A stretch of DNA of 19,748 bases from a virus (lineage: Duplodnaviria; Heunggongvirae; Uroviricota; Caudoviricetes). Positions 1,144 through 15,982 of the stretch are shown here, piece after piece. Position 1 is the first letter of the stretch, and every line of letters starts with the position of its first letter. A program made the position numbers and the translations under genes. The notes under the pieces are model-generated. The model made no database searches and was not told the origin of the DNA. It saw only the letters and a program-made list of their open reading frames with translations. Where the stretch lies: the IMG/VR virus record IMGVR_UViG_647533161_000006. The stretch is one strand, 5' to 3'.

Positions 1144-1369
1144 CAGCGATTATCCGTTGGAGTTTTGGGTTTGCGTTTATTGGGAGTTGCGGTTCTGCAA
1201 GCGTTCCTACAAAACGGGAATTTCGGTCAATCATCCAGTAGCGACCAACTTTTATAGCGGGTGGGGCCATCATTTTCCCTTGCGCGTATTTTTTCAGAAC
1301 TCGCTCACTTGGTGCTAAGTCCCCAAATTCTTCTTTAGCCCAGTCCTGTAAAGTGATTAGTCGAGACAT
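1133..1369 (-). CDS. xis: Excisionase-like small protein, 78 aa
   Basis: Small ORF immediately upstream of and overlapping int. ATG at 1369-1367 is preceded by a strong GAGGAGG Shine-Dalgarno on the coding strand. Function assigned by position and size. Confidence 0.7.
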   Translation of the reverse strand: MSRLITLQDWAKEEFGDLAPSERVLKKYAQGKMMAPPAIKVGRYWMIDRNSRFVGTLAEPQLPINANPKLQRIIADGC

Positions 1370-1508
1370 TTGTCCTCCTCTTAGCTGCTGAGGGAGTTTG
1401 TGACCGATATATCTGACATGATATTAAGCTCATGGCAGGTACATCTCTTGACTGGTCATAGAGATAAATTTAATGCTGAGAAATGCAGTATTGAATTTAT
1501 CAATTTTT

Positions 1509-1748
1509 CTATTTCCTGCGTATGGCACGTAACTTCTTAATGTGTTCTGCCGTTTCGATCTCTTCTGCTATCCGATCTGCATCAGCTTTATTCACAGGTT
1601 CAAAGTCATGATTAAAGCGGAACATGCTGGCGATACATGTTCTGCCTTTTCGGATGTAGTGAACTTTGTTGTAGGTAGAACGCAGGATTTTGCAGGGAGT
1701 GCCGTGGTGGTCGACGTACCAGGTGTTAGGAAAAATGATTCTGAGCAT
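1509..1748 (-). CDS. Hypothetical early-left (b-region) protein, 79 aa
   Basis: ATG-initiated ORF co-oriented with the pL operon; no family recognised from the translation. Confidence 0.45.
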   Translation of the reverse strand: MLRIIFPNTWYVDHHGTPCKILRSTYNKVHYIRKGRTCIASMFRFNHDFEPVNKADADRIAEEIETAEHIKKLRAIRRK

Positions 1749-1795
1749 TTTTACACCTCAGTTGGACGATGTTGAAATTTGCTGCTTTGAGGCCA

Positions 1796-2014
1796 TCACA
1801 ATCCCCATTGTTTGTTCTTAAGTTCGATCTCCTCCTGGCAACTTGCACAAGTCCGACAACCCTGAACGACCAGGCGTCTTCGCTCATCTATCGGATCGCC
1901 ACACTCACAACAATGAGTGGCAGATACAGTCTGGTAGTTCAGACGACGCATTTTTATTGCTGTATTGCGCTGTAATTCTTCGATTTCTGATGCTGAATCA
2001 ATGATGTCTGCCAT
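1796..2014 (-). CDS. TraR/DksA-family C4 zinc-finger protein, 72 aa
   Basis: Translation contains CxxC...(17)...CxxC (CCECGDPIDERRRLVVQGCRTCASC), typical of TraR/DksA-type zinc fingers that bind the RNA polymerase secondary channel. Size and position match TraR-like genes of lambdoid phages. Confidence 0.75.
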   Translation of the reverse strand: MADIIDSASEIEELQRNTAIKMRRLNYQTVSATHCCECGDPIDERRRLVVQGCRTCASCQEEIELKNKQWGL

Positions 2015-2063
2015 CTTCCATTAATCCCTGAATTGTTGGTTAATACGCTTGAGGGTGAATGCG

Positions 2064-2091
2064 AATAATAAAAAAGGAGCCTGTAGCTCCC
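2064..2091 (-). terminator. Intrinsic terminator-like hairpin on the minus strand
   Basis: Minus strand reads GGAGCTACAGGCTCC (5-bp stem) followed by TTTTTTATTATT; lies between the 93-aa ORF and the TraR-like gene. Confidence 0.45.
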
Positions 2092-2112
2092 TGATGATTT
2101 TGCTTTTCATGT

Positions 2113-2394
2113 TCATCGCTCCTTAAAGACGCCGTTTAACATGCCGATCGCCAGGCTTAAATGAGTCGGTGTGAATCCCATCAGCGTTACCGTTTCGCGG
2201 TGCTTCTTCAGTACGCTACGGCAAATGTCATCGACGTTTTTATCCGGAAACTGCTGTCTGGCTTTTTTGATTTCAGAGTTAGCTTGACGGGCAATGCTGC
2301 GAAGGGCGTTTTTCTGCTGAGGTGTCACTGAACAAGCCCCATGCCGGAAAGCATAAGCACACAGAATATGAAGCCCGCCGCCAGAAAAATGCAT
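2113..2394 (-). CDS. Hypothetical early-left protein (about 93 aa from ATG at 2394; ORF extends to a TTG at 2412)
   Basis: Open frame co-oriented with neighbours; start uncertain (no clear SD for either candidate); no recognised domain. Confidence 0.4.
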   Translation of the reverse strand: MHFSGGGLHILCAYAFRHGACSVTPQQKNALRSIARQANSEIKKARQQFPDKNVDDICRSVLKKHRETVTLMGFTPTHLSLAIGMLNGVFKER

Positions 2395-2404
2395 TCTGTT
2401 GTTG

Positions 2405-2596
2405 TCATGCAAGCTCTCTCTCGTTTGCCTCTGCTTTCGCCGCCATCATTTCCAGCTTTTGTGAAAGGGATGCGGCTAACGTATGAAATTCTTCGTCTGT
2501 TTCTGCTGGTATTGGCACAAACCTGACTCCAATTTGAGCAAGGCTATGTGCCATCTCAATGCTCGTTCTTAACTCAACAGGAGATGCTTTGTGCAT
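2405..2596 (-). CDS. Small early-left protein, 63 aa (lambda orf63-like position)
   Basis: ATG at 2596-2594 with a GAGGGG SD upstream; position and size match the small orfs that lie downstream of exo in lambda. Confidence 0.55.
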   Translation of the reverse strand: MHKASPVELRTSIEMAHSLAQIGVRFVPIPAETDEEFHTLAASLSQKLEMMAAKAEANERELA

Positions 2597-2751
2597 ACAG
2601 CCCCTCGTTTATTATTTATCTCCTCAGCCAGCCGCTGGGCTTTCAGTGGATTTTGGATAACAGAAAGGCCGGGAAATACCCAGCCTCGCTTTGTAACGGA
2701 GTAGACGAAAGTGATCGCGCCTACCCGGATATTATCGTGAGGATGCGTCAT
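2569..2751 (-). CDS. Small early-left protein, 60 aa (lambda orf60a-like)
   Basis: ATG at 2751-2749 overlaps the exo stop (2748-2750) in an ATGA arrangement, as for orf60a in lambda; the ORF-track entry extends 2 codons upstream. Confidence 0.55.
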
Positions 2752-3357
2752 CGCCATTGCTCCCCAAATACAAAACCAATTTCAGCCAGTGCCTCGTCCA
2801 TTTTTTCGATGAACTCCGGCACCATCTCGTCAAAACTCGCCATGTACTTTTCATCCCGCTCAACCACGACATAATGCAGTCCTTCACGCTTCATACGCGG
2901 GTCATAGTTGGCAAAGTACCAGGCATCTTTTCGTGTCACCCACATGCTGTACTGCACCTGGGCCATGTAAGCCGACTTTATGGCCTCGAAACCACCGAGC
3001 CGGAACTTCATGAAATCCCGGGAGGTAAACGGGCATTTCAGCTCAAGGCCATTGCCGTCACTGCATAAACCATCGGGAGAGCAGGCGGTGCGCATACTTT
3101 CGTCGCGATAGATGATCGGGGATTCAGTAACATTCACGCCGGAAGTGAATTCAAACAGAGTTCTGGCGTCGTTCTCGTACTGTTTTCCCCAGGCCAGCGC
3201 CTTAGCATTAACTTCCGGAGCCACACCGGTGCAAACCTCAGCCAGCAGGGTGTGGAAGTAGGACATTTTCATGTCAGGCCACTTCTTTCCTGAGCGGGGC
3301 TTTGCTATCACGTTGTGAACTTGTGAAGCGGTGATGACGCCGAGCCGTAATTTGTGC
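2748..3357 (-). CDS. exo: Lambda exonuclease (Red alpha), C-terminal about 202 codons; 5' end lost in the N run
   Basis: Translation (…[41 protein letters not shown]…GFVFGEQWR) is near-identical to lambda Exo as I recall it. Stop at 2748-2750. Confidence 0.92.
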
Positions 3358-3926
3358 NNNNNNNNNNNNNNNNNNNNNNNNNNNNNNNNNNNNNNNNNNN
3401 NNNNNNNNNNNNNNNNNNNNNNNNNNNNNNNNNNNNNNNNNNNNNNNNNNNNNNNNNNNNNNNNNNNNNNNNNNNNNNNNNNNNNNNNNNNNNNNNNNNN
3501 NNNNNNNNNNNNNNNNNNNNNNNNNNNNNNNNNNNNNNNNNNNNNNNNNNNNNNNNNNNNNNNNNNNNNNNNNNNNNNNNNNNNNNNNNNNNNNNNNNNN
3601 NNNNNNNNNNNNNNNNNNNNNNNNNNNNNNNNNNNNNNNNNNNNNNNNNNNNNNNNNNNNNNNNNNNNNNNNNNNNNNNNNNNNNNNNNNNNNNNNNNNN
3701 NNNNNNNNNNNNNNNNNNNNNNNNNNNNNNNNNNNNNNNNNNNNNNNNNNNNNNNNNNNNNNNNNNNNNNNNNNNNNNNNNNNNNNNNNNNNNNNNNNNN
3801 NNNNNNNNNNNNNNNNNNNNNNNNNNNNNNNNNNNNNNNNNNNNNNNNNNNNNNNNNNNNNNNNNNNNNNNNNNNNNNNNNNNNNNNNNNNNNNNNNNNN
3901 NNNNNNNNNNNNNNNNNNNNNNNNNN
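3358..3926. other. Run of 569 N (assembly gap or masked sequence)
   Basis: Directly visible in the sequence; interrupts the 5' end of exo and most of bet. Confidence 1.
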
Positions 3927-4039
3927 CACCCTTTAAATGCCGTCTGGCGAAGAGTGGTGATCAGTTCCTGTGGGTCGACAGAATCCATGCCGACACGTTC
4001 AGCCAGCTTCCCTGCCAGCGTTGCGAGTGCTGTACTCAT
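3927..4039 (-). CDS. bet: Lambda Bet (Red beta) ssDNA-annealing protein, N-terminal 37 codons only; remainder in the N run
   Basis: ATG at 4039-4037; MSTALATLAGKLAERVGMDSVDPQELITTLRQTAFKG matches the lambda Bet N-terminus. Confidence 0.88.
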
Positions 4040-4044
4040 CCGTT

Positions 4045-4461
4045 TTATACCTCTGAATCAATATCAACCTGGTGGTGAGCAATGGTTTCAACCATGTACC
4101 GGATGTGTTCTGCCATGCGCTCCTGAAACTCAACATCGTCATCAAACGCACGGGTAATGGCTTTTTTGCTGGCCCCGTGGCGTTGCAAATGATCGATGCA
4201 TAGCGATTCAAACAGGTGCTGGGGCAGGCCTTTTTCCATGTCGTCTGCCAGTTCTGCCTCTTTCTCTTCACGGGCGATCTGCTGGTAGTGACGCGCCCAG
4301 CTCTGAGCCTCAAGACGATCCTGAATGTAATAAGCGTTCATGGCTGAACTCCTGAAATAGCTGTGAAAATATCGCCCGCGAAATGCCGGGCTGATTAGGA
4401 AAACAGGAAAGGGGGTTAGTGAATGCTTTTGCTTGATCTCAGTTTCAGTATTAATATCCAT
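4045..4461 (-). CDS. gam: Gam (RecBCD inhibitor), 138 aa
   Basis: Translation [61 protein letters not shown]… is near-identical to lambda Gam, including the internal Met used for the short GamS form. Confidence 0.93.
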
Positions 4462-4559
4462 TTTTTATAAGCGTCGACGGCCTCACGAAACATCTTTTCA
4501 TCGCCAATAAAAGTGGCGATAGTGAATTTAGTCTGGATAGCCATAAGTGTTTGATCCAT
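4416..4559 (-). CDS. kil: Kil (host cell-division inhibitor), 47 aa
   Basis: Internal ATG at 4559-4557 gives [47 protein letters not shown], matching lambda Kil; overlaps the gam start as in lambda. Confidence 0.8.
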
Positions 4560-4692
4560 TTTTTGGGACTCCTGGCTGATTAAGTATGTCGATAAGGCGT
4601 TTCCATCCGTCACGTAATTTACGGGTGATTCGTTCAAGTAAAGATTCGGAAGGGCAGCCAGCAACAGGCCACCCTGCAATGGCATATTGCAT
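4528..4692 (-). CDS. cIII: CIII (FtsH/HflB inhibitor protecting CII), 54 aa
   Basis: ATG at 4692-4690 and an ending …NTYGYPD* were translated by hand (MQYAIAG…); overlaps kil in another frame as in lambda. Not in the ORF track because it is under 60 aa. Confidence 0.8.
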   Translation of the reverse strand: MQYAIAGWPVAGCPSESLLERITRKLRDGWKRLIDILNQPGVPKNGSNTYGYPD

Positions 4693-4764
4693 GGTGTGCT
4701 CCTTATTTATACATAACGAAAAACGCCTCGAGTGAAGCGTTATTGGTATGCGGTAACGCCGCGC

Positions 4765-5133
4765 TCAGGCGGCTTTGATAGTCATATCATCTGAATCAAA
4801 TATTCCTGATGTATCGATATCGGTAATTCTTATTCCTTCGCTACCATCCATTGGAGGCCATCCTTCCTGACCATTTCCATCATTCCAGTCGAACTCACAC
4901 ACAACACCATATGCATTTAAGTCGCTTGAAATTGCTATAAGCAGAGCATGTTGCGCCAGCATGATTAATACAGCATTTAATACAGAGCCGTGTTTATTGA
5001 GTCGGTATTCAGAGTCTGACCAGAAATTATTAATCTGGTGAAGTTTTTCCTCTGTCATTACGTCATGGTCGATTTCAATTTCTATTGATGCTTTCCAGTC
5101 GTAATCAATGATGTATTTTTTGATGTTTGACAT
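4765..5133 (-). CDS. ea10: Ea10 early protein, 122 aa
   Basis: Translation matches lambda Ea10 (MSNIKKYIIDYDWKASIEIEIDHDVMTEEKLHQINNFWSDSEY…). Confidence 0.8.
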   Translation of the reverse strand: MSNIKKYIIDYDWKASIEIEIDHDVMTEEKLHQINNFWSDSEYRLNKHGSVLNAVLIMLAQHALLIAISSDLNAYGVVCEFDWNDGNGQEGWPPMDGSEGIRITDIDTSGIFDSDDMTIKAA

Positions 5134-5150
5134 CTATTCATATCCTCACA

Positions 5151-5180
5151 GATAAAAAATCGCCCTCACATTGGAGGGCA
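5151..5180 (-). terminator. Intrinsic terminator on the minus strand (tL-type)
   Basis: Minus strand reads GCCCTC-CAATGT-GAGGGC followed by GATTTTTTATC; sits upstream of ea10 within the leftward operon, so it would be read through under N antitermination. Confidence 0.5.
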
Positions 5181-5393
5181 AAGAAGATTTCCAATAATCA
5201 GAACAAGTCGGCTCCTGTTTAGTTACGAGCGACATTGCTCAGTGTATTCACTCGTTGGAATGAATACACAGTGCAGTGTTTATTAGTATGCCTGTCTTTT
5301 AACCACATCAGGCTCGGTGGTTCTCGTGTACCCCTACAGCGAGAAATCGGATAAACTCTATTCACCCCTACAGAGAGCAAAAGAGAAACGCCG

Positions 5394-5975
5394 ATGAACA
5401 ACTCATGGTGGCAGGAACTAATGCATTTTTTCCTGCAAGGAATGACACTTAAACAGTTGATTCATATGCTAATCATCCTGATCATATTGATTATTGTTAT
5501 GCCTGTAAGCGTAAAAGAATGGATAAACCTGCATAATCCAGAAATCCTTCCTCATTACTGGATGTATTACATCCTGTTGTTTTGCGTTAGCTATGTGCTT
5601 AACGGCGTTGTTAATTCCGCTTATCACGCTGTGACTGTAAGAATTGAGATATTCGCTGCTCAGAAGCGCAAATCTAAAGAAGAGAAATACGTGCAAGATT
5701 TGTTTGATTCGTTAACTCTTGGAGAAAGAGCGTATTTGGCATTCGCTGTAGCCGCTAATAACCAGCTAAAGACAGAAAAGGGAAGCCCTGAAGCAATCTC
5801 ATTGCTCGAAAAAGGGCTTCTTATTCGGGTACCTTCTGCTACTGGATATCCTGAAATCGACCGTTTTGTTATCCCGGAACGCTATAGAAATGAGTGCTAC
5901 ATTAGGTTTGCTGGGAAGAAAGACAGTCTTATGGATGAACTTATCGCTCAGGATAAGCATGGCAAAAACAAGTAA
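5394..5975 (+). CDS. sieB: Superinfection exclusion protein B (SieB)-like inner-membrane protein, 193 aa as drawn
   Basis: Plus-strand ORF convergent with N, with a strongly hydrophobic N-terminal region (LIHMLIILIILIIVMPVSV…YWMYYILLFCVSYVLNGVV); recognised as SieB-like from memory of lambda SieB. The true start may be an internal Met. Confidence 0.7.
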   Translation: MNNSWWQELMHFFLQGMTLKQLIHMLIILIILIIVMPVSVKEWINLHNPEILPHYWMYYILLFCVSYVLNGVVNSAYHAVTVRIEIFAAQKRKSKEEKYVQDLFDSLTLGERAYLAFAVAANNQLKTEKGSPEAISLLEKGLLIRVPSATGYPEIDRFVIPERYRNECYIRFAGKKDSLMDELIAQDKHGKNK

Positions 5976-5991
5976 TTAGCAAATGAATTTA

Positions 5992-6300
5992 TCATCTCGC
6001 CGTCAGTTGTTTTGATTTCCGGTAGCCTGCCGCGTAAATAGCTACGTTTGGCAGGCAAACACTTCCACTGCATTCATCTACTTTCTTGCAGCGAAGGCTT
6101 CCGAGTGATATTGCTTTTTCAGAAAGGCTTAACCGCTTTCTCGGGTCTTCCTGAACAGGTTCCTCACTGTCTGTGCCGAAGATCGAATCGATGATGTTGC
6201 AGATGGAATCACGCTCGATGGCCAGCTTTCTGCGCCGCTCATGACGGCGAGTTTTGGCATTTCCTGCAAATGTTGATTTTCCGTACACGATTACCGTCAT
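5992..6300 (-). CDS. N: N-type transcription antiterminator, P22 gene 24-like, 102 aa from ATG at 6300
   Basis: Arginine-rich motif GNAKTRRHERRRKLAIER near the N-terminus (MTVIVYGKSTFAGNAKTRRHERRRKLAIERD…) matches the P22-type N ARM. The ORF-track entry starts 28 codons upstream at a non-ATG start. Confidence 0.82.
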   Translation of the reverse strand: MTVIVYGKSTFAGNAKTRRHERRRKLAIERDSICNIIDSIFGTDSEEPVQEDPRKRLSLSEKAISLGSLRCKKVDECSGSVCLPNVAIYAAGYRKSKQLTAR

Positions 6301-6418
6301 GATGTTTTCCTCATGTGAAATGGCTTTGGTGGTGATGCGCCAGATGCTGATCTTCTGGTTGCTGTCGTTACTGCTGCAATTCACATCACCCCAAACCCAT
6401 CTCGTTTGGTATCTGTTC

Positions 6419-6453
6419 GCGCTTTGTCAGCGCATCATCGAAGTTAAAGAGCC
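6419..6453 (-). promoter_or_regulatory. nutL: nutL (boxA plus boxB), P22 type
   Basis: Minus strand reads GGCTCTTTAAC (boxA-like) then GCGCTGACAAAGCGC (boxB hairpin, from 6419-6433), the P22-type nutL boxB, about 120 nt upstream of the N start. Confidence 0.72.
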
Positions 6454-6489
6454 TGCCAATCTGTTCCGTTTGGCTGCCAGCGTCCTGCT

Positions 6490-6545
6490 GATGGCGATTA
6501 TAATGAACCAATAGTTCGATATTATCAAGAACTATAAGTACGAAT
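6490..6545 (-). promoter_or_regulatory. Putative pL promoter and oL operator region
   Basis: Minus strand carries TATAAT (plus 6497-6502) and a TTGATA -35-like hexamer (plus 6523-6528) at a non-ideal spacing. Partial dyads (GAACTATAAGTAC, GAACCAATAGTTC) share the AGTAC/ACT..AGT motif seen in the cI-cro operator region. Exact operators not resolved. Confidence 0.35.
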
Positions 6546-6710
6546 TGTTTGTGGTTCATTAACTTAATGAGATATGTTTTTGATATGTAAAGGAATTTAT
6601 TTTTGTAAAGATTGAAGATTGGTCAGTAGGAGAGAAAGAATTGTTTGCTGGCGTGTTAGTTCGTGGGTTAGCACATGTGCGGATGTTAAATAAGGTAGAC
6701 GATCGTGAGG

Positions 6711-6736
6711 AAAAGAAAAACCGGCGCTGAGGCCGG
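6711..6736 (-). terminator. Intrinsic terminator closing the cI/gene-X transcription unit
   Basis: Minus strand reads CCGGCC-TCAGCG-CCGG (GC-rich hairpin) followed by TTTTTCTTTT, a few nt after the gene-X stop codon (6743-6745) and before the putative pL. Confidence 0.55.
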
Positions 6737-6742
6737 GTATAA

Positions 6743-7642
6743 TTATTTGATTATTTCTTTTATAAAGACTTCTTTCGGTTGGTATTTTTTATCTGATGAT
6801 TTGAGCTGGTACGTTATTGTTATATCAGCACGTACAGAAAATTTACCTGCAAAATCTGATGGGTTTACGTTGGGGCCAAGAACCATATTTACTCTTCGAT
6901 CTATTAATCCAGGGATAACAGCAGCCCAACCTTTCTCTGGATTGTCGAGGTCTAATGCACGGATTTCAACATCAACATCAAAATGATCCTGAGTATATGA
7001 CTCTGGTGTGAAGACAACTTCAGTTGGGGCTTTTTTAATGGTTTCAGCGGGAATGGTCACTGTACCACCCCCTGTACCTATGACCATCGTAGATCCTTCG
7101 TCTGCCCTAGCTGGGGCAAGCGTCTTAATGGAACTTTTGGCAAGAGTCTTCTTATTGGTTACCGTGCTTTCTATGATTGCTTGAAGACGGTCAGGTGAAA
7201 TATTAGCCTCACCGGCACCAATATTGATGATTGTATTGTTATTTGCTTCAAAGTGGGAGGTGTTGCTTGGAGCCATAGCCTTAGTTGCTAGAACTAAGCC
7301 ATATCCAACCAGACCAATAACAACAGCACCAACGAGAGCGTTTCTCATTTTCCCATTTCCGATCTTTGCATGAGCGCCAGCAAGAAACTTGTCCATTTCT
7401 TCTTGGCTACCAAAGAGGAGTTTAATAACAATATCTTCATAAAGGCTTCCTGCTTCTAATCGCGCAACATGCACCGATATATCAAGGATATTAGCCCCTG
7501 TCAGTTCCTGCAAAACACCTTCTGATTGTTTTGCGATGGCCTCCCACCCTTGAAGGGAGGTAATCACATCTTTGATGCTTACAGGTTCTTTAGTTGAATA
7601 ATATATGTTTTCGGTAAAGGTTAAAGATAATTCTTGGGACAT
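6743..7642 (-). CDS. Uncharacterised single-pass membrane protein, 299 aa, in the rexAB-equivalent slot
   Basis: Long ATG-initiated ORF (ATG 7642-7640) with a GAGGG SD upstream, co-oriented with and downstream of cI. One hydrophobic segment (NALVGAVVIGLVGYGLVLATKAMA) separates an N-terminal ~100-aa domain from a Gly/Thr-rich ~175-aa C-terminal domain. Visibly AT-rich compared with flanking phage genes; no family recognised. Confidence 0.7.
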   Translation of the reverse strand: MSQELSLTFTENIYYSTKEPVSIKDVITSLQGWEAIAKQSEGVLQELTGANILDISVHVARLEAGSLYEDIVIKLLFGSQEEMDKFLAGAHAKIGNGKMRNALVGAVVIGLVGYGLVLATKAMAPSNTSHFEANNNTIINIGAGEANISPDRLQAIIESTVTNKKTLAKSSIKTLAPARADEGSTMVIGTGGGTVTIPAETIKKAPTEVVFTPESYTQDHFDVDVEIRALDLDNPEKGWAAVIPGLIDRRVNMVLGPNVNPSDFAGKFSVRADITITYQLKSSDKKYQPKEVFIKEIIK

Positions 7643-7771
7643 CCGAGCCCTCGCTGTTTCTTTCGATTTGCTGTGTTAAGCTAATATTTTAATATCCATG
7701 TTTCTGTTTGCTTGCAGTGTGTTTCTCACCACCATCCAAACGTACTGGTTACTAGCTATGTGATGATGAAG

Positions 7772-8479
7772 TCATGAACTTTTCAGCCATTCCCTGGCCT
7801 CGATGTCATCTAGGTGGCGAGATTGCTTCAGAATACCAGCTACATACTCCACCTTTGCTACTTGATGATAAGGCAACGTTATTGGCCTGTGGTCTTGGTT
7901 GATGCTTGTAAATTGGTATTCTCCGTCTCTGTCATAGCCAAGAACCTTGATCATGTTGTGCCCTTCAATGGTTCTGACAAACACCTCATCACCTGGGAAT
8001 ACTTTGGTGTTAGGCTCAATGAGTACATATTCTCCTGATTTTATTCTGGGCCACATGCTGTCTCCTTTTACACGAAGACCAAAGGCATCTGGATCATCGC
8101 TATAAATCTTGAGCCACCCATCGCGCTCTTCGGTCATCTCGATGGCACCATCAACACCAAGAATTGCCTCACCAACCACGCGCACTAACCCTTTTTTTAA
8201 TTTGCCAACAATTGAAAAAGTATCTTCATCATTCGCTCCATTTAACGAAGTGCCGTGCTGAAGCCAAACAACATCAACGTTTAGAAATTTCGCAAGCGCA
8301 TTCATTTTTTCCTGGCGTGGTAAAGACTCAGCATTAAACCATTTGCTAACGCCTTTGGACGAAAGAGAAAGGGCACGGGCTATGGCCATTCCCCTACCAT
8401 GTTCATCAAGACCAGCTTCTTTACAGGCTTGCGCTAGCCGCTGGGCGAATTCTTTGCGCACTTTTTCATTCTGAACCAT
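7772..8479 (-). CDS. cI: CI-like prophage repressor (N-terminal HTH, C-terminal S24 LexA-like autopeptidase), 235 aa
   Basis: C-terminal domain contains GDSMWP (Ser nucleophile motif of S24 peptidases) and a downstream Lys; N-terminal region is HTH-like. Divergent from cro across a short operator region. Not lambda CI or P22 C2 by sequence. Confidence 0.85.
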   Translation of the reverse strand: MVQNEKVRKEFAQRLAQACKEAGLDEHGRGMAIARALSLSSKGVSKWFNAESLPRQEKMNALAKFLNVDVVWLQHGTSLNGANDEDTFSIVGKLKKGLVRVVGEAILGVDGAIEMTEERDGWLKIYSDDPDAFGLRVKGDSMWPRIKSGEYVLIEPNTKVFPGDEVFVRTIEGHNMIKVLGYDRDGEYQFTSINQDHRPITLPYHQVAKVEYVAGILKQSRHLDDIEAREWLKSS

Positions 8480-8557
8480 GAGTACGATACTAAAGCACTT
8501 GCAAAAACTTTCAGTTCAACCATAATGCGTACTGAAAGTACGAAAAAGGACATTCCT
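8480..8557. promoter_or_regulatory. oR / pR / pRM divergent control region
   Basis: 78-bp cI-cro intergenic with a plus-strand -35 TTGCAA (8499-8504), 16-bp spacer, -10 CATAAT (8521-8526). Dyads CGTACTGAAAGTACG (8528-8542) and AACTTTCAGTT (8506-8516) overlap the promoter as candidate operators. pRM not resolved. Confidence 0.5.
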
Positions 8558-8785
8558 ATGCAAAATCTTGATGAGCCGATTAAAGGTGTCGGCATCCCTG
8601 AAGTTGCGAAGGCTTGTGGAGTTAGCGAAAGGGCTGTCTATAAGTGGCTCAAAAACGGCTTCCTCCCTAAGACTGAGTTTTTTGGGAAAACGAAATACGC
8701 ATCAAAAATCGAAGAGATTTCTGGTGGCAAATATCAAGCAAGCGAAATGCTTGAAATAAGCAAAAAGAACCTTCTGGCAGCATAA
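8558..8785 (+). CDS. cro: Cro-like HTH regulator, 75 aa from ATG 8558
   Basis: First rightward gene, opposite cI; AAAAAGGA SD precedes ATG 8558; HTH-like segment GIPEVAKACGVSERAVYKWLKNG. The ORF-track start at 8525 lies inside the operator region and is less likely. Confidence 0.7.
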   Translation: MQNLDEPIKGVGIPEVAKACGVSERAVYKWLKNGFLPKTEFFGKTKYASKIEEISGGKYQASEMLEISKKNLLAA

Positions 8786-8792
8786 GTAACAC

Positions 8793-8827
8793 CGCTCTTT
8801 ATCAATCTGCACCGCCGACAACGCGGT
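8793..8827 (+). promoter_or_regulatory. nutR: nutR (boxA CGCTCTTTA plus boxB ACCGCCGACAACGCGGT), P22 type
   Basis: boxA at 8793-8801 and boxB hairpin at 8811-8827, just downstream of the cro stop; boxB matches the P22-type nutR. Confidence 0.7.
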
Positions 8828-8891
8828 AACTAATTAAGAACTCATCGAAAGATGCGTATTAGTGATTATTTACCTATGGAAATAGTAAGAA

Positions 8892-9191
8892 ATGGAACAA
8901 ACAAATTACAGCAAACTATCACAGCGCGACGTTGATCGCGCAGAAACAGATTTACTTATCAACCTGTCAACGCTTACTCAGCGCGGTCTGGCAAAGATGA
9001 TTGGCTGTCATGAATCGAAGATAAGCAGAACAGACTGGAGGTTTATAGCTTCGGTCTTGTGTGCTTTTGGCATGGCATCAGACATCAGTCCGATTAGCAG
9101 AGCTTTTAAGTATGCGCTTGATGAAATCACCAATAAAAAACGCCCGGTGTGCAAGACCGAGCGTTCTGAACAAATCCAGATGGAGTTCTGA
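8892..9191 (+). CDS. cII: CII transcriptional activator (lysogeny establishment), 99 aa
   Basis: C-terminus …TNKKRPVCKTERSEQIQMEF matches the lambda CII C-terminus; the N-terminal half is divergent (mosaic). Confidence 0.8.
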   Translation: MEQTNYSKLSQRDVDRAETDLLINLSTLTQRGLAKMIGCHESKISRTDWRFIASVLCAFGMASDISPISRAFKYALDEITNKKRPVCKTERSEQIQMEF

Positions 9192-9213
9192 GGTCATTAC
9201 TGGATCTATCAAC
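9131..9213 (-). ncRNA. oop: oop-like antisense RNA (overlaps the cII 3' end)
   Basis: Minus strand across the cII end/O start reads …CTGGATTTGTTCAGAACGCTCGGTCTTGCACACCGGGCGTTTTTTATTG, closely resembling lambda oop RNA and its hairpin plus U-tract terminator, though the stem is altered. Coordinates inferred from the lambda arrangement. Confidence 0.45.
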
Positions 9214-9223
9214 AGGAGTCATT

Positions 9224-10123
9224 ATGACAAATACAGCAAAAATACTCAACTTCGGCAGAGGTAACTTTGCCGGACAGGAGCGTAATGTGGCAGATCTCGA
9301 TGATGGTTACGCCAGACTATCAAATATGCTGCTTGAGGCTTATTCGGGCGCAGATCTGACCAAGCGACAGTTTAAAGTGCTGCTTGCCATTCTGCGTAAA
9401 ACCTATGGGTGGAATAAACCAATGGACAGAATCACCGATTCTCAACTTAGCGAGATTACAAAGTTACCTGTCAAACGGTGCAATGAAGCCAAGTTAGAAC
9501 TCGTCAGAATGAATATTATCAAGCAGCAAGGCGGCATGTTTGGACCAAACAAAAACATCTCAGAATGGTGCATCCCTCAAAACGAGGGAAAATCCCCTAA
9601 AACGAGGGATAAAACATCCCTCAAATTGGGGGATTGCTATCCCTCAAAACAGGGGGACACAAAAGACACTATTACAAAAGAAAAAAGAAAAGATTATTCG
9701 TCCGAGAATTCTGGCGAATCCTCTGACCAGCCAGAAAACGATCTTTCTGTGGTTAAACCGGATGCTGCAATTCAGAGCGGCAGTAAGTGGGGAACAGCAG
9801 AAGACCTGACCGCCGCAGAGTGGATGTTTGACATGGTGAAGACCATCGCGCCATCAGCCAGAAAACCGAATTTTGCTGGGTGGGCTAACGATATCCGCCT
9901 GATGCGTGAACGTGACGGACGTAACCACCGCGATATGTGTGTGCTTTTCCGCTGGGCCTGCCAGGACAACTTCTGGTCCGGTAACGTGCTGAGTCCGGCC
10001 AAACTCCGCGACAAGTGGACCCAGCTCGAAATCAACCGTAACAAGCAACAGGCTGGCGTGACAGCCGGAAAACCAAAACTCGACCTGACAAACACTGACT
10101 GGATTTACGGGGTGGATCTATGA
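9224..10123 (+). CDS. O: Replication initiator O, 299 aa
   Basis: Translation is essentially lambda O throughout (MTNTAKILNFGRGNFAGQERNVADLDDGYARLSNMLLEAY…TNTDWIYGVDL). Confidence 0.95.
   Translation: MTNTAKILNFGRGNFAGQERNVADLDDGYARLSNMLLEAYSGADLTKRQFKVLLAILRKTYGWNKPMDRITDSQLSEITKLPVKRCNEAKLELVRMNIIKQQGGMFGPNKNISEWCIPQNEGKSPKTRDKTSLKLGDCYPSKQGDTKDTITKEKRKDYSSENSGESSDQPENDLSVVKPDAAIQSGSKWGTAEDLTAAEWMFDMVKTIAPSARKPNFAGWANDIRLMRERDGRNHRDMCVLFRWACQDNFWSGNVLSPAKLRDKWTQLEINRNKQQAGVTAGKPKLDLTNTDWIYGVDL
9562..9690 (+). repeat. ori-lambda: four iterons plus adjacent AT-rich segment inside O
   Basis: Repeated units ATCCCTCAAAACGAGGGA / AATCCCCTAAAACGAGGGA / ACATCCCTCAAATTGGGGGA / TTGCTATCCCTCAAAACAGGGGGA, followed by the A-rich stretch AAAAGACACTATTACAAAAGAAAAAAGAAAAG. 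Confidence 0.85.
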
Positions 10124-10821
10124 AAAACATCGCCGCACAGATGGTTAACTTTGACCGTGAGCAGATGCGTCGGATCGCCAACAACATGCCGGAACAGTAC
10201 GACGAAAAGCCACAGGTACAGCAGGTAGCGCAGATCATCAACGGTGTGTTCAGCCAGTTACTGGCAACTTTCCCGGCGAGCCTGGCTAACCGTGACCAGA
10301 ACGAACTGAACGAAATCCGCCGCCAGTGGGTTCTGGCTTTCCGGGAAAACGGGATCACCACAATGGAACAGGTTAACGCAGGAATGCGCGTAGCCCGTCG
10401 GCAGAATCGACCATTTCTGCCATCACCCGGGCAGTTTGTTGCATGGTGCCGGGAAGAAGCATCCGTTATCGCCGGACTGCCAAACGTCAGCGAGCTGGTT
10501 GATATGGTTTACGAGTATTGCCGGAAGCGAGGCCTGTATCCGGATGCGGAGTCTTATCCGTGGAAATCAAATGCGCACTACTGGCTGGTTACCAACCTGT
10601 ATCAGAACATGCGGGCCAATGCGCTTACTGATGCGGAATTACGCCGTAAGGCCGCAGATGAGCTTGTCCATATGACTGCGAGAATTAACCGTGGTGAGGC
10701 GATCCCTGAACCAGTAAAACAACTTCCTGTCATGGGCGGTAGACCTCTAAATCGTGCACAGGCTCTGGCGAAGATCGCAGAAATCAAAGCTAAGTTCGGA
10801 CTGAAAGGAGCAAGTGTATGA
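10120..10821 (+). CDS. P: Replication protein P (DnaB helicase loader), 233 aa
   Basis: Translation is near-identical to lambda P; start overlaps the O stop (ATGA). Confidence 0.95.
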   Translation: MKNIAAQMVNFDREQMRRIANNMPEQYDEKPQVQQVAQIINGVFSQLLATFPASLANRDQNELNEIRRQWVLAFRENGITTMEQVNAGMRVARRQNRPFLPSPGQFVAWCREEASVIAGLPNVSELVDMVYEYCRKRGLYPDAESYPWKSNAHYWLVTNLYQNMRANALTDAELRRKAADELVHMTARINRGEAIPEPVKQLPVMGGRPLNRAQALAKIAEIKAKFGLKGASV

Positions 10822-11108
10822 CGGGCAAAGAGGCAATTATTCATTACCTGGGGACGCATAATAGCTTCTGTGCGCCGGACGTTGCCGCGCTAACAGGCGC
10901 AACAGTAACCAGCATAAATCAGGCCGCGGCTAAAATGGCACGGGCAGGTCTTCTGGTTATCGAAGGTAAGGTCTGGCGAACGGTGTATTACCGGTTTGCT
11001 ACCAGGGAAGAACGGGAAGGAAAGATGAGCACGAACCTGATTTTCAAGGAGTGTCGCCAGAGTGCCGCGATGAAACGGGTATTGGCGGTATATGGAGTTA
11101 AAAGATGA
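10818..11108 (+). CDS. ren: Ren (protects against Rex exclusion), 96 aa
   Basis: Translation matches lambda Ren; start overlaps the P stop. Confidence 0.88.
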   Translation: MTGKEAIIHYLGTHNSFCAPDVAALTGATVTSINQAAAKMARAGLLVIEGKVWRTVYYRFATREEREGKMSTNLIFKECRQSAAMKRVLAVYGVKR

Positions 11109-11132
11109 CCATCTACATTACTGAGCTAATAA

Positions 11133-11165
11133 CAGGCCTGCTGGTAATCGCAGGCCTTTTTATTT
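11133..11165 (+). terminator. Intrinsic terminator (tR2-equivalent) between ren and ninB
   Basis: AGGCCTGC-TGGTAATC-GCAGGCCT hairpin followed by TTTTTATTT on the plus strand. Confidence 0.65.
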
Positions 11166-11181
11166 GGGGGAGAGGGAAGTC

Positions 11182-11622
11182 ATGAAAAAACTAACCTTTG
11201 AAATTCGATCTCCAGCACATCAGCAAAACGCTATTCACGCAGTACAGCAAATCCTTCCAGACCCAACCAAACCAATCGTAGTAACCATTCAGGAACGCAA
11301 CCGCAGCTTAGACCAAAACAGGAAGCTATGGGCCTGCTTAGGTGACGTCTCTCGTCAGGTTGAATGGCATGGTCGCTGGCTGGATGCAGAAAGCTGGAAG
11401 TGTGTGTTTACCGCAGCATTAAAGCAGCAGGATGTTGTTCCTAACCTTGCCGGGAATGGCTTTGTGGTAATAGGCCAGTCAACCAGCAGGATGCGTGTAG
11501 GCGAATTTGCGGAGCTATTAGAGCTTATACAGGCATTCGGTACAGAGCGTGGCGTTAAGTGGTCAGACGAAGCGAGACTGGCTCTGGAGTGGAAAGCGAG
11601 ATGGGGAGATCGGGCTGCATGA
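11182..11622 (+). CDS. ninB: NinB (Orf family recombination mediator), 146 aa
   Basis: From ATG 11182 (MKKLTFEIRSPAHQQNAIHAVQQILPDP…) the translation matches lambda NinB; the ORF-track start is 6 codons upstream. Confidence 0.85.
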   Translation: MKKLTFEIRSPAHQQNAIHAVQQILPDPTKPIVVTIQERNRSLDQNRKLWACLGDVSRQVEWHGRWLDAESWKCVFTAALKQQDVVPNLAGNGFVVIGQSTSRMRVGEFAELLELIQAFGTERGVKWSDEARLALEWKARWGDRAA

Positions 11623-12146
11623 CTATCAAATCAAATACGCCAGCACACGACAAGGACTGCTGGCAAACGCCGCTTTGGCTTTTTGATGCACTGGATATTG
11701 AGTTTGGATTCTGGCTGGATTCGGCAGCGAGCGACAAAAATGCTCTGTGTGCTCACTGGCTAACTGAGGCCGACGACGCGCTCAATTCTGAGTGGGTAAG
11801 CCACGGTGCAATCTGGAATAACCCACCGTACAGCAATATCAGGCCGTGGGTGGAAAAAGCCGCTGAGCAGTGCATACAACAGCGACAGACGGTAGTTATG
11901 CTTGTGCCAGAGGATATGTCAGTCGGATGGTTCAGCAAGGCTCTGGAGAGTGTCGACGAAGTTCGCATTATCACTGATGGACGGATTAATTTTATCGAAC
12001 CATCGACAGGGCTGGAGAAGAAGGGAAACAGCAAAGGCTCCATGCTGCTGATTTGGCGACCGTTCATCAGTCCTCGACGGATGTTTACTACCGTATCCAA
12101 AGCGGCATTGATGGCGATCGGGCAGGGCGTCAGGAGGGCGGCATGA
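11619..12146 (+). CDS. Phage DNA N6-adenine methyltransferase (Dam-family, orphan), about 175 aa
   Basis: ATG 11619 overlaps the ninB stop (ATGA). Translation contains the NPPY catalytic motif (…[15 protein letters not shown]…) characteristic of N6-adenine methyltransferases. Occupies the nin position where lambda has ninC/ninD. No adjacent restriction gene. Confidence 0.8.
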
Positions 12147-12319
12147 GGCGACAGCGACGAAGTTTCACCGACATCATCTGCGAAAACTGCAAATACCTTC
12201 CAACGAAACGCTCCAGAAATAAACGCAAGCCAATCCCAAAAGAATCTGACGTAAAAACCTTCAATTACACAGCTCACCTGTGGGATATCCGGTGGCTAAG
12301 ATATCGTGCGAGGAAATGA
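12143..12319 (+). CDS. ninE: NinE, 58 aa
   Basis: Internal ATG 12143 overlapping the methyltransferase stop gives [58 protein letters not shown], recognised as NinE-like. Confidence 0.7.
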
Positions 12320-12663
12320 CAATGGATTATTCACAGTTAAGTGATTTTGAAATTAACAGAATGGTAGGAGACATAATTTTTAAAGGCCTTTGGGCAAGTA
12401 AACCGGAAACATCAGGGAATAACACCAACAAATGGTATTACGGAAATGCTGATACAACTTTTGAGCCATTAAATCATTTGCCTGACTACTGCAATGATCC
12501 GAGCGCTTCATGGCCGATTATTGAGAAATACAGGATTTCTATCTTAGACCAGTTAACTGAATGGTGTGTGGATGCAAAAGGCGTAAGCCCAATATTTGAT
12601 ACCAGACCTCTCCGCGCCGCCATTATTGTCTTTCTCCTGATGCAGGAGGCCAATAATGCTTAG
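12316..12663 (+). CDS. Hypothetical nin-region protein, about 114-116 aa
   Basis: ATG at 12316 overlaps the ninE stop; an alternative ATG at 12322 has an AGGAA SD 6 nt upstream. No family recognised with confidence. Confidence 0.5.
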
Positions 12664-12850
12664 CCCATCTCAATCCCTTCAATACCTGAAAGGAAGCATA
12701 GAGCGGGCTTCAATGTGCACAGAGTGGATTCTATCTAGGTTTAGCGCATACAGAAGATTGCCGGTAAAGGGCATGCCAAGCAAGTCGATGCTGCATATGC
12801 AAAAGAATGCGCGCGGGAAGGTATGGCGAGAACGCAGGTTATCTGGCTGA
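12656..12850 (+). CDS. Small nin-region ORF, 64 aa (possible NinF-like N-terminus; may be a fusion or decayed gene)
   Basis: ATG-initiated ORF overlapping the previous gene's end; only the first ~18 residues look NinF-like to me (from memory, uncertain). Terminates 20 nt before rusA in a different frame from the remnant listed next. Confidence 0.35.
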
Positions 12851-12873
12851 AAGAGGGGGTAATTAAGGCGTGA
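12745..12873 (+). pseudogene. Start-less 42-codon reading frame running into the rusA start (possible 3' remnant of a ybcO-like gene)
   Basis: Hand translation of the frame ending at TGA 12871-12873: [42 protein letters not shown]. It has an upstream in-frame stop at 12742-12744 and no plausible start; the attribution to ybcO/DUF1364 is from memory and tentative. Confidence 0.3.
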
Positions 12874-13232
12874 ATACTTACCACATCACACTACCCTGGC
12901 CTCCGAGCAATAATCGCTATTATCGCCATAATCGCGGGCGCACGCACGTCAGCGCAGAGGGGCAGGCATACCGCGATAACGTCGCCCGAATCATTAAAAA
13001 CGCAATGCTGGATATCGGCCTGGCGATGCCTGTGAAAATCCGCATTGAGTGCCACATGCCGGATCGCCGTCGCCGTGACCTGGATAATCTGCAAAAAGCC
13101 GCTTTTGACGCACTCACCAAAGCAGGTTTCTGGCTGGATGATGCTCAGGTCGTTGATTACCGCGTTGTGAAGATGCCTGTTACCAAAGGTGGGAGGCTGG
13201 AATTGACCATCACCGAAATGGGGAATGAATGA
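12870..13232 (+). CDS. rusA: RusA Holliday-junction resolvase, 120 aa (GTG start)
   Basis: Translation [95 protein letters not shown]… matches RusA of E. coli lambdoid prophages. Confidence 0.92.
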
Positions 13233-13369
13233 TGTTTGAGTTTTATATGGCAGAACGTCTTCGCCACCGCTGGGTGCGTCTGCGCTTATATCGTTTCCCC
13301 GGTTCTGTTTTGACCGATTACCGAATACTGAAGAATTACGCCAAAACACTGACAGGAGCAGGAGTATGA
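13229..13369 (+). CDS. ylcG: YlcG-like small protein, 46 aa
   Basis: Hand-translated [46 protein letters not shown]; start overlaps the rusA stop; rusA-ylcG-Q order as in DLP12-type prophages. Confidence 0.55.
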
Positions 13370-13454
13370 AGTCAGAGATAACAATCAACTAATACTGTTT
13401 TGCTGATTTTTGCTTGTAATTGGCGTTCTGGTCTGATTTTTGTGGAGTAAGTTG

Positions 13455-13832
13455 ATGCGTGATATTCAGATGGTTCTTGAGCGTTGGGGAGCGTGGGCGG
13501 CTAATAATCATGAAGATGTGACCTGGTCGTCCATTGCCGCCGGTTTTAAGGGATTAATTCCTTCAAAAGTAAAATCTCGCCCGCAATGTTGTGACGATGA
13601 CGCGATGATCATTTGCGGGTGCATGGCCCGTCTGAAAAATAACAACAGCGATTTGCATGATTTGTTAGTGGACTATTATGTCGGCGGCATGACTTTTATG
13701 GCGCTTGCGCGTAAGCATGGTAGATCTGATTGTTGGATTGGCAGGATGCTCCAAAAAGCTGAGGGCGTAGTGGAGGGCATGCTGATGGTGTTGGATCTCA
13801 GATTGGAGATGGATGCTGATTGTTTGAGATAA
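13455..13832 (+). CDS. Q: Late-gene antiterminator Q (phage 82 / DLP12 QuuD type), 125 aa
   Basis: From ATG 13455 (GGAG SD 8 nt upstream): [76 protein letters not shown]… recognised as 82-type Q. The ORF-track entry starts at an upstream TTG. Confidence 0.82.
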
Positions 13833-13930
13833 TTAAAGGAAAAGTTGCTGTCTGGTTATCATTAGACTAATGTTTCAAATGTTAGAATCGCAACGTAGTT
13901 ATGATCATATAACAGCTTGTTCCCTGATTT
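13833..13930 (+). promoter_or_regulatory. Expected PR' late promoter and qut site region (not resolved to bases)
   Basis: Immediately downstream of Q and upstream of a plus-strand terminator, as in lambdoid late-control regions; candidate -10 TAGAAT at 13883-13888 but no well-spaced -35. Confidence 0.35.
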
Positions 13931-13959
13931 AGCCAGCCTCCCCAAAGGCTGGTTTTTTT
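13931..13959 (+). terminator. Intrinsic terminator (tR'-equivalent) downstream of Q
   Basis: AGCCAGCC-TCCCCAAA-GGCTGG hairpin followed by TTTTTTT on the plus strand. Confidence 0.6.
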
Positions 13960-13987
13960 CTAATAAGTATCAATCCGGTTAGGTATT

Positions 13988-14512
13988 TTATTGTTTGACC
14001 CATAATAGTTCATTGACATTGAATCCCAATTTTTGAGCAGTACGCACATAGTCTGCTTTTACATTATCTGGAATAGTTGGAGTCCGTGCCAGAATCCATA
14101 GGTATTCTCTGTTCGGACCACTGACAAGAGCATACTTATACTCATCATCCAGTTTGATTACATTATAGCCACCATAGAAGGGGCCAAAAAACGAAACCTT
14201 CAACGCTGCAGTTGTATTATCTCCTGTAAAGTATGCTTTACCTTCGCTCTCGCTCCATTTGTTTTTCGTTGGGTCATATCCACGATTAAGTACACTAATC
14301 CCTCCGTCGTTCCGTTTCCCATAAGTGGCGCTGACCTGTTCCAGACCACGTTCAAATCGGTTCTCAAGCCGAGCTATTTCATACCATTTTCCGAGGTAGC
14401 GGTTGGTGTCAAAATTTGTAATCGGCTGCACACCTTTAGGTGGTGTCGGGGCCTTACATGCTATCAGAGTGAAAGAGAGTGCAATGCCAGTCAACACAGG
14501 CCATAACTTCAT
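13988..14512 (-). CDS. Blc-like outer-membrane lipocalin lipoprotein, 174 aa (moron)
   Basis: Signal peptide with lipobox (…FTLIAC) then lipocalin-type sequence (NFDTNRYLGKWYEIARLENRFERGLEQV…KVSFFGPFYGGYNVI…YLWILARTP) closely resembling bacterial lipocalin Blc; opposite strand to the late operon. Confidence 0.85.
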   Translation of the reverse strand: MKLWPVLTGIALSFTLIACKAPTPPKGVQPITNFDTNRYLGKWYEIARLENRFERGLEQVSATYGKRNDGGISVLNRGYDPTKNKWSESEGKAYFTGDNTTAALKVSFFGPFYGGYNVIKLDDEYKYALVSGPNREYLWILARTPTIPDNVKADYVRTAQKLGFNVNELLWVKQ

Positions 14513-14704
14513 AATATATCCTGTACTTTTGATAGTTGAGAGTAAGTATTAAAGATAGATGATTACTACCGATCACCTAAAGAACTTTCCTACTATATTA
14601 GGAATAGTCCATAACAAAAAAATTGTCAGTGATGACGGCAGAAAGGCAGTTTAGGTCGTGTACTACACTGTTAACCTGTTAATGAATTAGTCAAGGGGTA
14701 GGCA

Positions 14705-15664: not shown

Positions 15665-15982
15665 GCGTTTGGAATGCACCAACAAGATGATTTTCTCCTT
15701 AGAGAATGTTTACAATCGTAAAAACTTCACTATGATATCTATAGTTGTACAGTTTGTAAAAAAATTCGGTTCATGCTTAAGGTAATGTTAATATGTTAAT
15801 TAATGATTAATAATCAAGCAAGCCAAAAATAGTTCTGTTTAATCTAGTATTACATAAATATTTTAAAGAAAATATCAAAGTTCATGATGATATAATGAGA
15901 TTTTTCTCATTGAAAATATGGCAATTTTAATATTTCCACCTATACTTACTTAACTCAAATCTAATTATGTCAGGTGGATGGT

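Follow-up and report, generated by a model that had tools for sequence, protein, structure and literature searches.

Gene content and antitermination module

The region analysed here, positions 5992-9191 of a 19,748-nucleotide stretch of DNA from a Caudoviricetes virus record (the window), contains, from left to right, the antiterminator gene N, nutL, the promoter pL with its operators, a gene for a 299-aa protein, the repressor gene cI, the OR region, cro, nutR and cII. The sequence features listed in the original prediction, which read the region as a lambdoid mosaic, were all present at or near their predicted positions. The left part belongs to a P22-like module that begins with a sieB-type superinfection exclusion gene (5394..5975, plus strand; Pfam SieB, E = 3e-25), whose product shares 162 of 193 residues with P22 SieB and 40 of 198 with lambda SieB. 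The DNA of 5289-6495 is 80% identical to that of Salmonella phage P22, and the gene order sieB-24-nutL is the same, but the P22 C2 repressor, operators and replication genes (18 and 12) are absent from the window.

N is encoded on the minus strand at 5992..6300 and is a protein of 102 aa beginning with MTVIVYGK (Pfam N_peptide, E = 5e-41); the 130-aa open reading frame called from a GTG codon is an over-extension. As had been proposed, its arginine-rich motif, GNAKTRRHERRRKLAIERD, is of the P22 type: the gp24 motif GNAKTRRHERRRKLAIER is found at the N-terminus of N, identical over residues 13-31 (19 residues). Over the whole protein, 72 of 102 residues (about 71%) are identical to gp24. The last ~24 residues also match the N protein of phage 933W, and the DNA of 5992-6062 shows 93% identity to the 3' end of the 933W N gene, whose product is otherwise different (41/133 identical).

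Comparison with P22 placed nutL at 6419..6453 on the minus strand, with boxA GGCTCTTTA at 6445-6453, an 11-nt spacer and boxB GCGCTGACAAAGCGC at 6419-6433, the latter predicted to fold into a 5-bp stem with a pentaloop. The spacer and boxB are exactly those of P22 nutL, and boxA is one base off, with G for the initial C of P22 CGCTCTTTA. On the plus strand, nutR (8793..8827) consists of boxA CGCTCTTTA at 8793-8801, a 9-nt spacer and boxB ACCGCCGACAACGCGGT at 8811-8827; both boxes have exactly the P22 nutR sequence. Each boxB occurs once in the window, and both hairpins, which were predicted by folding, combine a GACAA pentaloop with P22 stems. The nutL boxB does not discriminate between P22 and 933W, because the two phages have the same sequence there; the P22 type is recognised by boxA, by the short distance between boxA and boxB, and by the stem of the nutR boxB. 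In contrast, the 933W nut sites are of a long-spacer form, and 933W nutR departs from the P22 pattern in boxA, in its longer spacer and in its stem, albeit with the same GACAA loop. A four-way alignment and a map of mismatches to 933W showed that a cassette of ~90 bp around nutR (8797-8885) is not 933W-like. Judged by sequence, then, the antitermination system is a P22-type N with matching nutL and nutR. Because N is only about 71% identical to gp24 beyond the motif, its host-factor needs may differ from those of P22.

Two overlapping open reading frames in this part, 6386-6559 (minus strand) and 6254-6514 (plus strand; 'FIG00644188' in phage 1H12), have no family match, overlap regulatory RNA and promoter sequence, and were regarded as spurious. 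At a permissive threshold, the sole Rfam match was the cIII thermometer RNA, a lambda-like element, and no Rfam model matched the nut sites or oop. A sequence search of the PDB with N gave nothing useful and did not retrieve the P22 N peptide entry.

Repressor, Cro and operators

The cI gene (7772..8479, minus strand) encodes a repressor of 235 aa with Pfam HTH_3 and Peptidase_S24 domains, the latter being the autocleavage domain. It was correctly described in the original prediction as neither lambda CI nor P22 C2, with which it shares 55 of 258 and 49 of 247 residues (~20%), and an HK022-type repressor (HK75) is only 33.5% identical to it. However, 232 of its 235 residues (98.7%) are those of 933W CI. 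The three differences, F88L, I90F and I171V, all lie outside the helix-turn-helix, and S41, K42 and K46, for which operator contacts have been demonstrated or modelled (PMC3317979), are kept. The comparison included a tblastn search over 50,697 phage records, which covers phages 21, 434, HK97 and HK022 as part of the set rather than by individual alignment, and a sequence search of the PDB with CI found no relative with a solved structure. Cro (8558..8785, plus strand) is identical to 933W Cro in all 75 residues.

The operators were compared with those annotated for 933W in AF125520 and GQ499365. The OR region (8472..8542) contains three 15-bp operators that match the 933W annotation exactly, OR3 at 8472-8486, OR2 at 8504-8518 and OR1 at 8528-8542, and they overlap pR (8499-8526, plus strand, found by a promoter scan) and pRM (8487-8514, minus strand, with coordinates transferred from AF125520); from 8385 to 8526 there is not one mismatch to 933W. 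On the left, a consensus scan located pL (TTGATA, 17-nt spacer, CATTAT; 6500..6528, minus strand), which aligns with the 933W OL/pL region and is overlapped by OL1 (6504..6519), which has exactly the OL1 sequence given in the GQ499365 annotation, and by OL2 (6526..6541). OL2 carries two substitutions in its 16 bases relative to 933W OL2. They fall on operator positions 6' and 7' (6536 and 6537 of the window), leave 2-5 and 2'-5' unchanged, and turn the right half-site into CGTACTT, a half-site that is present in OR1. Operator positions 6 and 7 are less conserved, and natural half-sites have T or C at position 6 (PMC3317979). Alignment with the 933W OL/pL region revealed no third OL site, and in this respect, as in the conservation of pR, pRM and the terminator tM, the window resembles 933W.

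The original prediction of a probable new immunity specificity does not hold, since the repressor and operators belong to a characterised type, that of 933W, and OL2 alone differs, at two weakly specified positions. Binding of the 933W repressor to the 933W operators has been measured (PMC3317979). The sequence comparison points to the 933W immunity type, and a lysogen would be expected to be homoimmune with 933W. The OL2 variant and the changes F88L and I90F in the CI linker could shift the strength of repression or the rate of cleavage.

cII, replication genes and module junctions

The cII gene (8892..9191, plus strand; Pfam Phage_CII, E = 7e-34) is itself a composite, since both protein comparisons and DNA alignment divide its product into residues 1-80 of the 933W type and a tail, residues 81-99, of the lambda type that comprises the degradation tag region; the cII tail of 933W is different. 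The lambda-like tail is explained by an antisense unit on the minus strand (9137..9249), with a promoter at 9221-9249 and a terminator hairpin at 9137-9167 that overlaps the 3' end of cII (promoter and terminator scans; fold z-score -2.8). This unit, which from established knowledge of lambda we take to be oop, forms the left end of a lambda-type replication module. The module contains O and P (9224..10821, plus strand), identical to their lambda counterparts in 298 of 299 and 231 of 233 residues, and four exact 18-bp lambda ori iterons within O (9572-9656), whereas 933W O has a 13-residue insertion and six annotated iterons.

As predicted earlier, the sequence is of the lambda type (96-99% DNA identity) both from the cII C-terminus through ninB and in the Red genes of the left flank. 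On the right, identity to lambda starts at 9127 and amounts to 98.7% over 9127-11622, with the cII tail, oop, O, P, ren and ninB at about 99%; on the left, 1819-5284 (exo, bet, gam, kil, cIII and ea10) is 96-99% identical, except for a masked run of N at 3358-3926. Relative to lambda, the window lacks ral and orf28, has other sequences in place of N, the nut sites, cI, cro and rexAB, and carries a Dam-type methylase instead of ninC. The two breakpoints that had been proposed, between ea10 and N and near the cII C-terminus, are real (5284/5289 and 9127), but the set is larger and also includes the start of pL, both sides of the ~90-bp nutR cassette and the oop terminator.

Related phages and distribution

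Region 5992-9191 recurs with 100% identity in eleven phage records (1H12, Lambda_ev087 and others), and about 146 complete E. coli genomes contain a match of at least 99%. Over positions 163-15190, the window is 99.96-100% identical, without notable difference, to Escherichia phage 1H12 (NC_049947, Jouyvirus) and to the Lambda_ev and Lambda_2E9 series, whose records are complete genomes of ~46.7 kb; the window is that phage type, as a prophage or a phage genome. Searching the literature for the accession numbers brought up no paper on this mosaic; it did show that phage 1H12 is used in the RudS paper.

A more distant relative, the Stx2a phage Stx2_EH1965 (LC616032; 93-97% identity), was checked base by base and likewise combines a P22-type N motif and nutL with 933W OL, cI, cro, P22-type nutR and a lambda-tailed cII, and ~50 related Stx2a records share its match pattern. 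Unlike the window, Stx2_EH1965 has an N with a lambda-like C-terminus, genes for 285-aa and 113-aa proteins between cI and OL, and an OL2 of the 933W sequence, and its replication module departs from that of the window beyond 9187.

Interpretation of the mosaic

Taken together, these results make it very likely, with a probability of about 90% in our estimate, that this is the control region for the early genes of a lambda-like prophage, one that combines a 933W repressor switch with lambda-type replication genes and an antiterminator of the P22 type. The mosaic description in the original prediction is thereby retained, without the new immunity. The region would govern early regulation in a functional lambdoid prophage that is essentially phage 1H12, and would be built from three well-known types of module. 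In the lysogen, CI dimers on OR1/OR2 and OL1/OL2 would keep pR and pL off and drive pRM. In 933W, repressor binding between adjacent sites is non-cooperative and OL3 is lacking. Self-cleavage of the S24 domain, stimulated by RecA, would induce the prophage, and the transcripts then started at pL and pR would bear nutL and nutR, on which the arginine-rich motif of N, the boxB hairpins with their GACAA loops and the host Nus factors would allow RNA polymerase to read through terminators. Replication would be carried out by the lambda-type oop, O, P and ori. Since we found no experiment on this exact sequence, we infer immunity, N function and induction from near-identity.

Considered from the side of the repressor, a switch with a new specificity, heteroimmune to all characterised lambdoid phages, could be argued from the ~20% identity of CI to lambda CI and P22 C2 and from the three CI and two OL2 substitutions that separate it from 933W. 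We regard this as highly improbable, because there is no difference from 933W in the DNA-binding domain of CI, anywhere in Cro, or in OR1, OR2, OR3 and OL1, and the changes at 6' and 7' of OL2 yield a half-site already present in OR1. Equally improbable is the view that the prophage has decayed or is defective, with a P22-type N and a 933W switch that are mismatched and no longer cooperate. The occurrence of junctions inside genes (N and cII) and inside the nutR region might suggest such decay, but all genes are intact, N shares its type with both nut sites, the junctions coincide with functional boundaries (the start of pL, just past the cro stop codon and the oop terminator), and the same sequence has been deposited as complete phage genomes.

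The position of nutR deserves separate consideration. It lies between a 933W-type cro and a 933W-type cII, yet it is matched in type to N and not to these neighbours, which agrees with a requirement that N remain compatible with its two RNA targets, and from this we infer co-adaptation of N and nutR. Alternatively, the nutR cassette might have been acquired by chance recombination and be neutral, with P22-type and 933W-type N working on either nut site. The identity of the 933W and P22 nutL boxB sequences and the GACAA loop of 933W nutR suggest that the two N/nut systems may be partly cross-compatible, which would weaken the argument from co-adaptation, and short conserved flanking sequences could promote such an exchange. 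On the other hand, 933W pairs its own N with long-spacer nut sites, and the P22-type N motif, nutL and nutR occur together around the 933W switch in both independent lineages examined, namely the 1H12-type prophages and Stx2_EH1965. A neutral cassette is therefore in our opinion the less probable explanation, although one to be taken seriously, about one chance in four being left to it.

With respect to novelty, the immunity region itself contains nothing new. Its sequence is already public in phage and E. coli genomes, which makes the region ordinary, and the discovery value is small, as the 933W switch is among the best studied of Shiga-toxin phages; its immunity region has reportedly been studied by the Koudelka and Friedman laboratories. 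The value of the locus lies rather in being a clean natural case of module exchange among lambdoid phages, where N, nutL and nutR remain a matched set on both sides of an immunity region of foreign origin and the exchanges occur at functional boundaries (the pL start, the cro end and the oop terminator). In addition, 933W immunity is common in prophages that do not carry Stx, with about 150 of 5,426 complete E. coli genomes having this arrangement, which bears on superinfection immunity against Stx phages.

The cargo gene between cI and OL

The gene for the 299-aa protein (6743..7642, minus strand), which had gone unnoticed in the original prediction, belongs to phrog_4506 (function unknown) and occupies the slot of lambda rexAB and 933W stk. 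Where 933W has L0084, L0083, stk and L0081 between cI and OL, the window has this gene only, and its DNA has no match in 933W, lambda or P22. It lies directly downstream of cI on the same strand and is closed by an intrinsic terminator (6721..6736, minus strand; terminator scan) that aligns with the annotated tM of 933W. This terminator corresponds to tM and also to the one that follows rexB in lambda, and 6700-6738 shares 95% identity with the lambda sequence just after rexB. The cargo gene is probably co-transcribed with cI up to this tM-like terminator.

No significant Pfam match (above the cut-off) and no PADLOC match at E <= 0.01 were obtained for the protein, and a profile search of the PDB found nothing. 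An AF2 model (pLDDT 82.8) gave no convincing fold match, none having a TM above 0.4, and M16 peptidase-like Foldseek matches in the PDB and BFVD, with a TM of at most 0.4, were treated as noise. The protein contains a single strongly hydrophobic helix at about residues 101-122, and a tentative suggestion, for which we would give rather less than even odds, is that this predicted single-helix membrane protein founds a new family of lysogen-expressed phage-exclusion proteins. The gene points in any case to an uncharacterised family in a repressor-linked cargo slot, with 662 representatives (representative clusters). In prophages of Lonsdalea and Pectobacterium, homologues are found in this slot too, following repressors that are unrelated, and in elements of Edwardsiella, Accumulibacter and Serratia they lie at other accessory-gene positions.

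Results

The DNA is the genome of a lambdoid phage or prophage, extending from int (1-1143) across the early region as far as the lysis genes and bor. Between N and cII (5992-9191), Pfam families support the assignments of N (5992-6300, minus strand; N_peptide), cI (7772-8479, minus; HTH_3 and Peptidase_S24), cro (8558-8785, plus; HTH Cro-like protein) and cII (8892-9191, plus; Phage_CII). An additional ORF of 299 aa (6743-7642, minus; phrog_4506), here called the cargo gene, lies between cI and OL. Two small ORFs over nutL and pL (6254-6514, plus, a hypothetical protein in the annotation of phage 1H12, and 6386-6559, minus) matched no family and, since they also overlap regulatory sequence, are probably not genes.

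The immunity type of this phage is already known, namely that of 933W, and the immunity region contains no new element. The original prediction had regarded the region as a mosaic with a probable new immunity specificity; the mosaic part stands, and the new specificity does not, because the repressor and operators are those of 933W. The repressor was correctly said to be neither lambda CI nor P22 C2, as it is ~20% identical to each. However, when 50,697 phage records were searched by tblastn, it was found at 98.7% identity both in 933W itself and in many Stx1 and Stx2 phages. The three differences from 933W CI (F88L, I90F and I171V) are in the linker and C-terminal domain, and the recognition-helix residues S41, K42 and K46 are retained. 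For 933W, the roles of S41 and K46 were examined with mutants or base analogues, while the contact of K42 was modelled (PMC3317979). Cro is identical to 933W Cro at all 75 residues.

According to the 933W operator annotations in AF125520 and GQ499365, OR1 (CGTACTGAAAGTACG, 8528-8542), OR2 (8504-8518), OR3 (8472-8486) and OL1 (6504-6519) are base-for-base 933W operators. OL2 (6526-6541) departs from the 933W sequence at two bases (6536 and 6537), corresponding to positions 6' and 7' of the operator. Positions 6 and 7 are less conserved among the 933W operators, with T or C at position 6 of natural half-sites, and most of the specificity is carried by positions 2-5 (PMC3317979), which are unaltered in the OL2 variant. 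Furthermore, the changed half-site, CGTACTT, also occurs in OR1, which is the strongest of the natural sites. A promoter scan placed pR (8499-8526) and pL (6528-6500) where they were expected.

Lambda (NC_001416), P22 (NC_002371) and 933W (AF125520) served as references for direct comparison, which bore out each sequence feature named in the original prediction. The junctions were mapped by blastn and base-by-base mismatch lists. The lambda-like segment, which lacks ral and orf28, extends up to 5284; the Red genes are lambda-type as predicted, with 96-99% identity to lambda over 1819-5284, broken only by a masked run of N at 3358-3926. This run is within exo/bet, and the ORF lists show runs of X there. 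The cIII translational thermometer (Rfam Lambda_thermo) was detected at 4647-4705 (minus; 88.5 bits, E = 3e-21). A P22-like sieB-N-nutL module (5289-6495, 80% identity) follows, and its right end is a few bases from the pL transcript start, at CATCAGCAGGACGC, a short sequence common to lambda, P22 and 933W. The 933W-like OL and leader (6480-6737) are only 73% identical overall, with the operators and terminator conserved, and the cargo gene segment (6743-7642) has no match in lambda, P22 or 933W. The sequence is 933W-like from 7744 to 8796 (cI, OR and cro; ~1 mismatch per 50 bases), is not 933W-like in a cassette of ~90 bp (8797-8885) with the P22-type nutR, and is 933W-like again at 8886-9130, which encodes cII residues 1-80.

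From 9127 the sequence is that of lambda, and the predicted lambda character of the cII tail, O, P and the genes to the right was confirmed: the DNA of 9127-11622 is 98.7% identical to lambda, O and P are identical at 298 of 299 and 231 of 233 residues, respectively, and all four ori iterons match exactly. The 9127 junction is just 3' of a strong terminator hairpin on the minus strand (9137-9167), and a promoter-like site (9221-9249) reads into this hairpin. Going by what is established for lambda, these two elements are the oop antisense unit. Since this unit overlaps the cII 3' end, the cII tail moves with the replication module. A Dam-type N6-adenine methyltransferase gene (11559-12146, plus), whose DNA shares 97.7% identity with the methylase gene of 933W, occupies the place of lambda ninC.

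The P22 assignments of N and its sites were also borne out. The arginine-rich motif of N, GNAKTRRHERRRKLAIERD, matches P22 gp24 exactly, and N is identical to P22 gp24 at 72 of 102 positions, compared with 41 of 133 for 933W N and 21 of 119 for lambda N. N is itself a mosaic, with a P22/933W-like C-terminus; by blastn, the final ~24 residues match those of 933W N. The nutL site (boxA 6445-6453, boxB 6419-6433, minus) shares its spacer and boxB with P22 nutL and has one change in boxA, and both elements of nutR (boxA 8793-8801, boxB 8811-8827) are the same as in P22 nutR. Each boxB folds as a short hairpin and occurs once in the window. The nutL boxB alone is not diagnostic, because that of 933W is identical to that of P22. 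Judged by sequence, what marks the sites as P22-type is boxA, the stem of nutR and the shortness of the spacers; in contrast, 933W nutR consists of CGCTATTTT, a long spacer and then TCGCTGACAAAGCGA.

Eleven deposited phage records, among them 1H12 (NC_049947, genus Jouyvirus), Lambda_2E9 and Lambda_ev087, match 5992-9191 at 100% identity; 1H12 is 99.96-100% identical to 163-15190 of the window. At least 80% of the region was found in 150 of 5,426 complete E. coli genomes, with 146 matching records at 99% identity or more. The Stx2a-converting phage Stx2_EH1965 (LC616032), examined in detail, has the same combination of P22-type N motif, nutL and nutR, 933W OL, cI and cro, and cII with a lambda-type tail. 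Its N (2877-3218 of the stretch examined) has the same N-terminal 72 residues, but the C-terminus is lambda-like instead. The match pattern of ~50 related Stx2a records is the same as that of Stx2_EH1965.

Discussion

The best-supported reading is that parts from three sources make up a standard lambdoid early circuit. Its switch would be 933W-like, with OR and OL occupancy set by intrinsic affinities and OL having two sites, as 933W has two OL sites and no pairwise cooperativity (PMC3317979). The S24 domain of CI would supply RecA-stimulated self-cleavage. Antitermination is expected to be P22-like, with the arginine-rich motif of N binding the GACAA pentaloop boxB, and replication would be lambda-like. 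We infer that N is functional and that the phage would be homoimmune with 933W. In each of two separate lineages, a foreign switch is flanked by N, nutL and nutR that are all of the P22 type, which suggests that matched parts may have been kept by selection. The shared nutL boxB leaves room for the alternative that the 933W and P22 N/nut systems are cross-compatible.

The cargo gene occupies the slot that holds rexAB in lambda, stk in 933W and two other genes in Stx2_EH1965. It is encoded on the cI strand, 129 bp further downstream; the terminator scan predicted no terminator in the gap, and the conserved operon terminator (6721-6736) comes after the cargo gene. We infer co-transcription with cI. 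The protein belongs to a function-unknown family (phrog_4506); it had no significant Pfam match, and neither PADLOC nor a profile search of the PDB gave a match. One helix (approximately residues 101-122) is strongly hydrophobic. In the confident AF2 model (pLDDT 82.8), two alpha/beta domains surround central helices, and no fold match was convincing. The family is large (a word-indexed search gave 56 clusters, and a profile search 662 representatives), and its members are almost all ~300 aa, without fusions. In prophages of Lonsdalea and Pectobacterium, homologues directly follow unrelated repressor genes; in Edwardsiella they lie between Q and the lysis genes, in Accumulibacter in a Mu-like phage, and in Serratia beside a P4-like primase. 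These contexts fit an accessory gene that would be expressed in the lysogen, possibly with a role in exclusion.

Between Q and the lysis genes there is a gene for a TudS-DUF1722 fusion (14705-15664, plus; Pfam 2-thiour_desulf and DUF1722), flanked by genes for a Blc-like lipocalin (13988-14512, minus) and an AraC-family regulator (15974-16714, plus), both downstream of Q and upstream of the holin. The same position holds toxin genes in Stx phages. The fusion gene is the counterpart of gp66 in phage 1H12, which was tested as 'RudS_vir', a tRNA 4-thiouridine desulfidase (PMC11417400).
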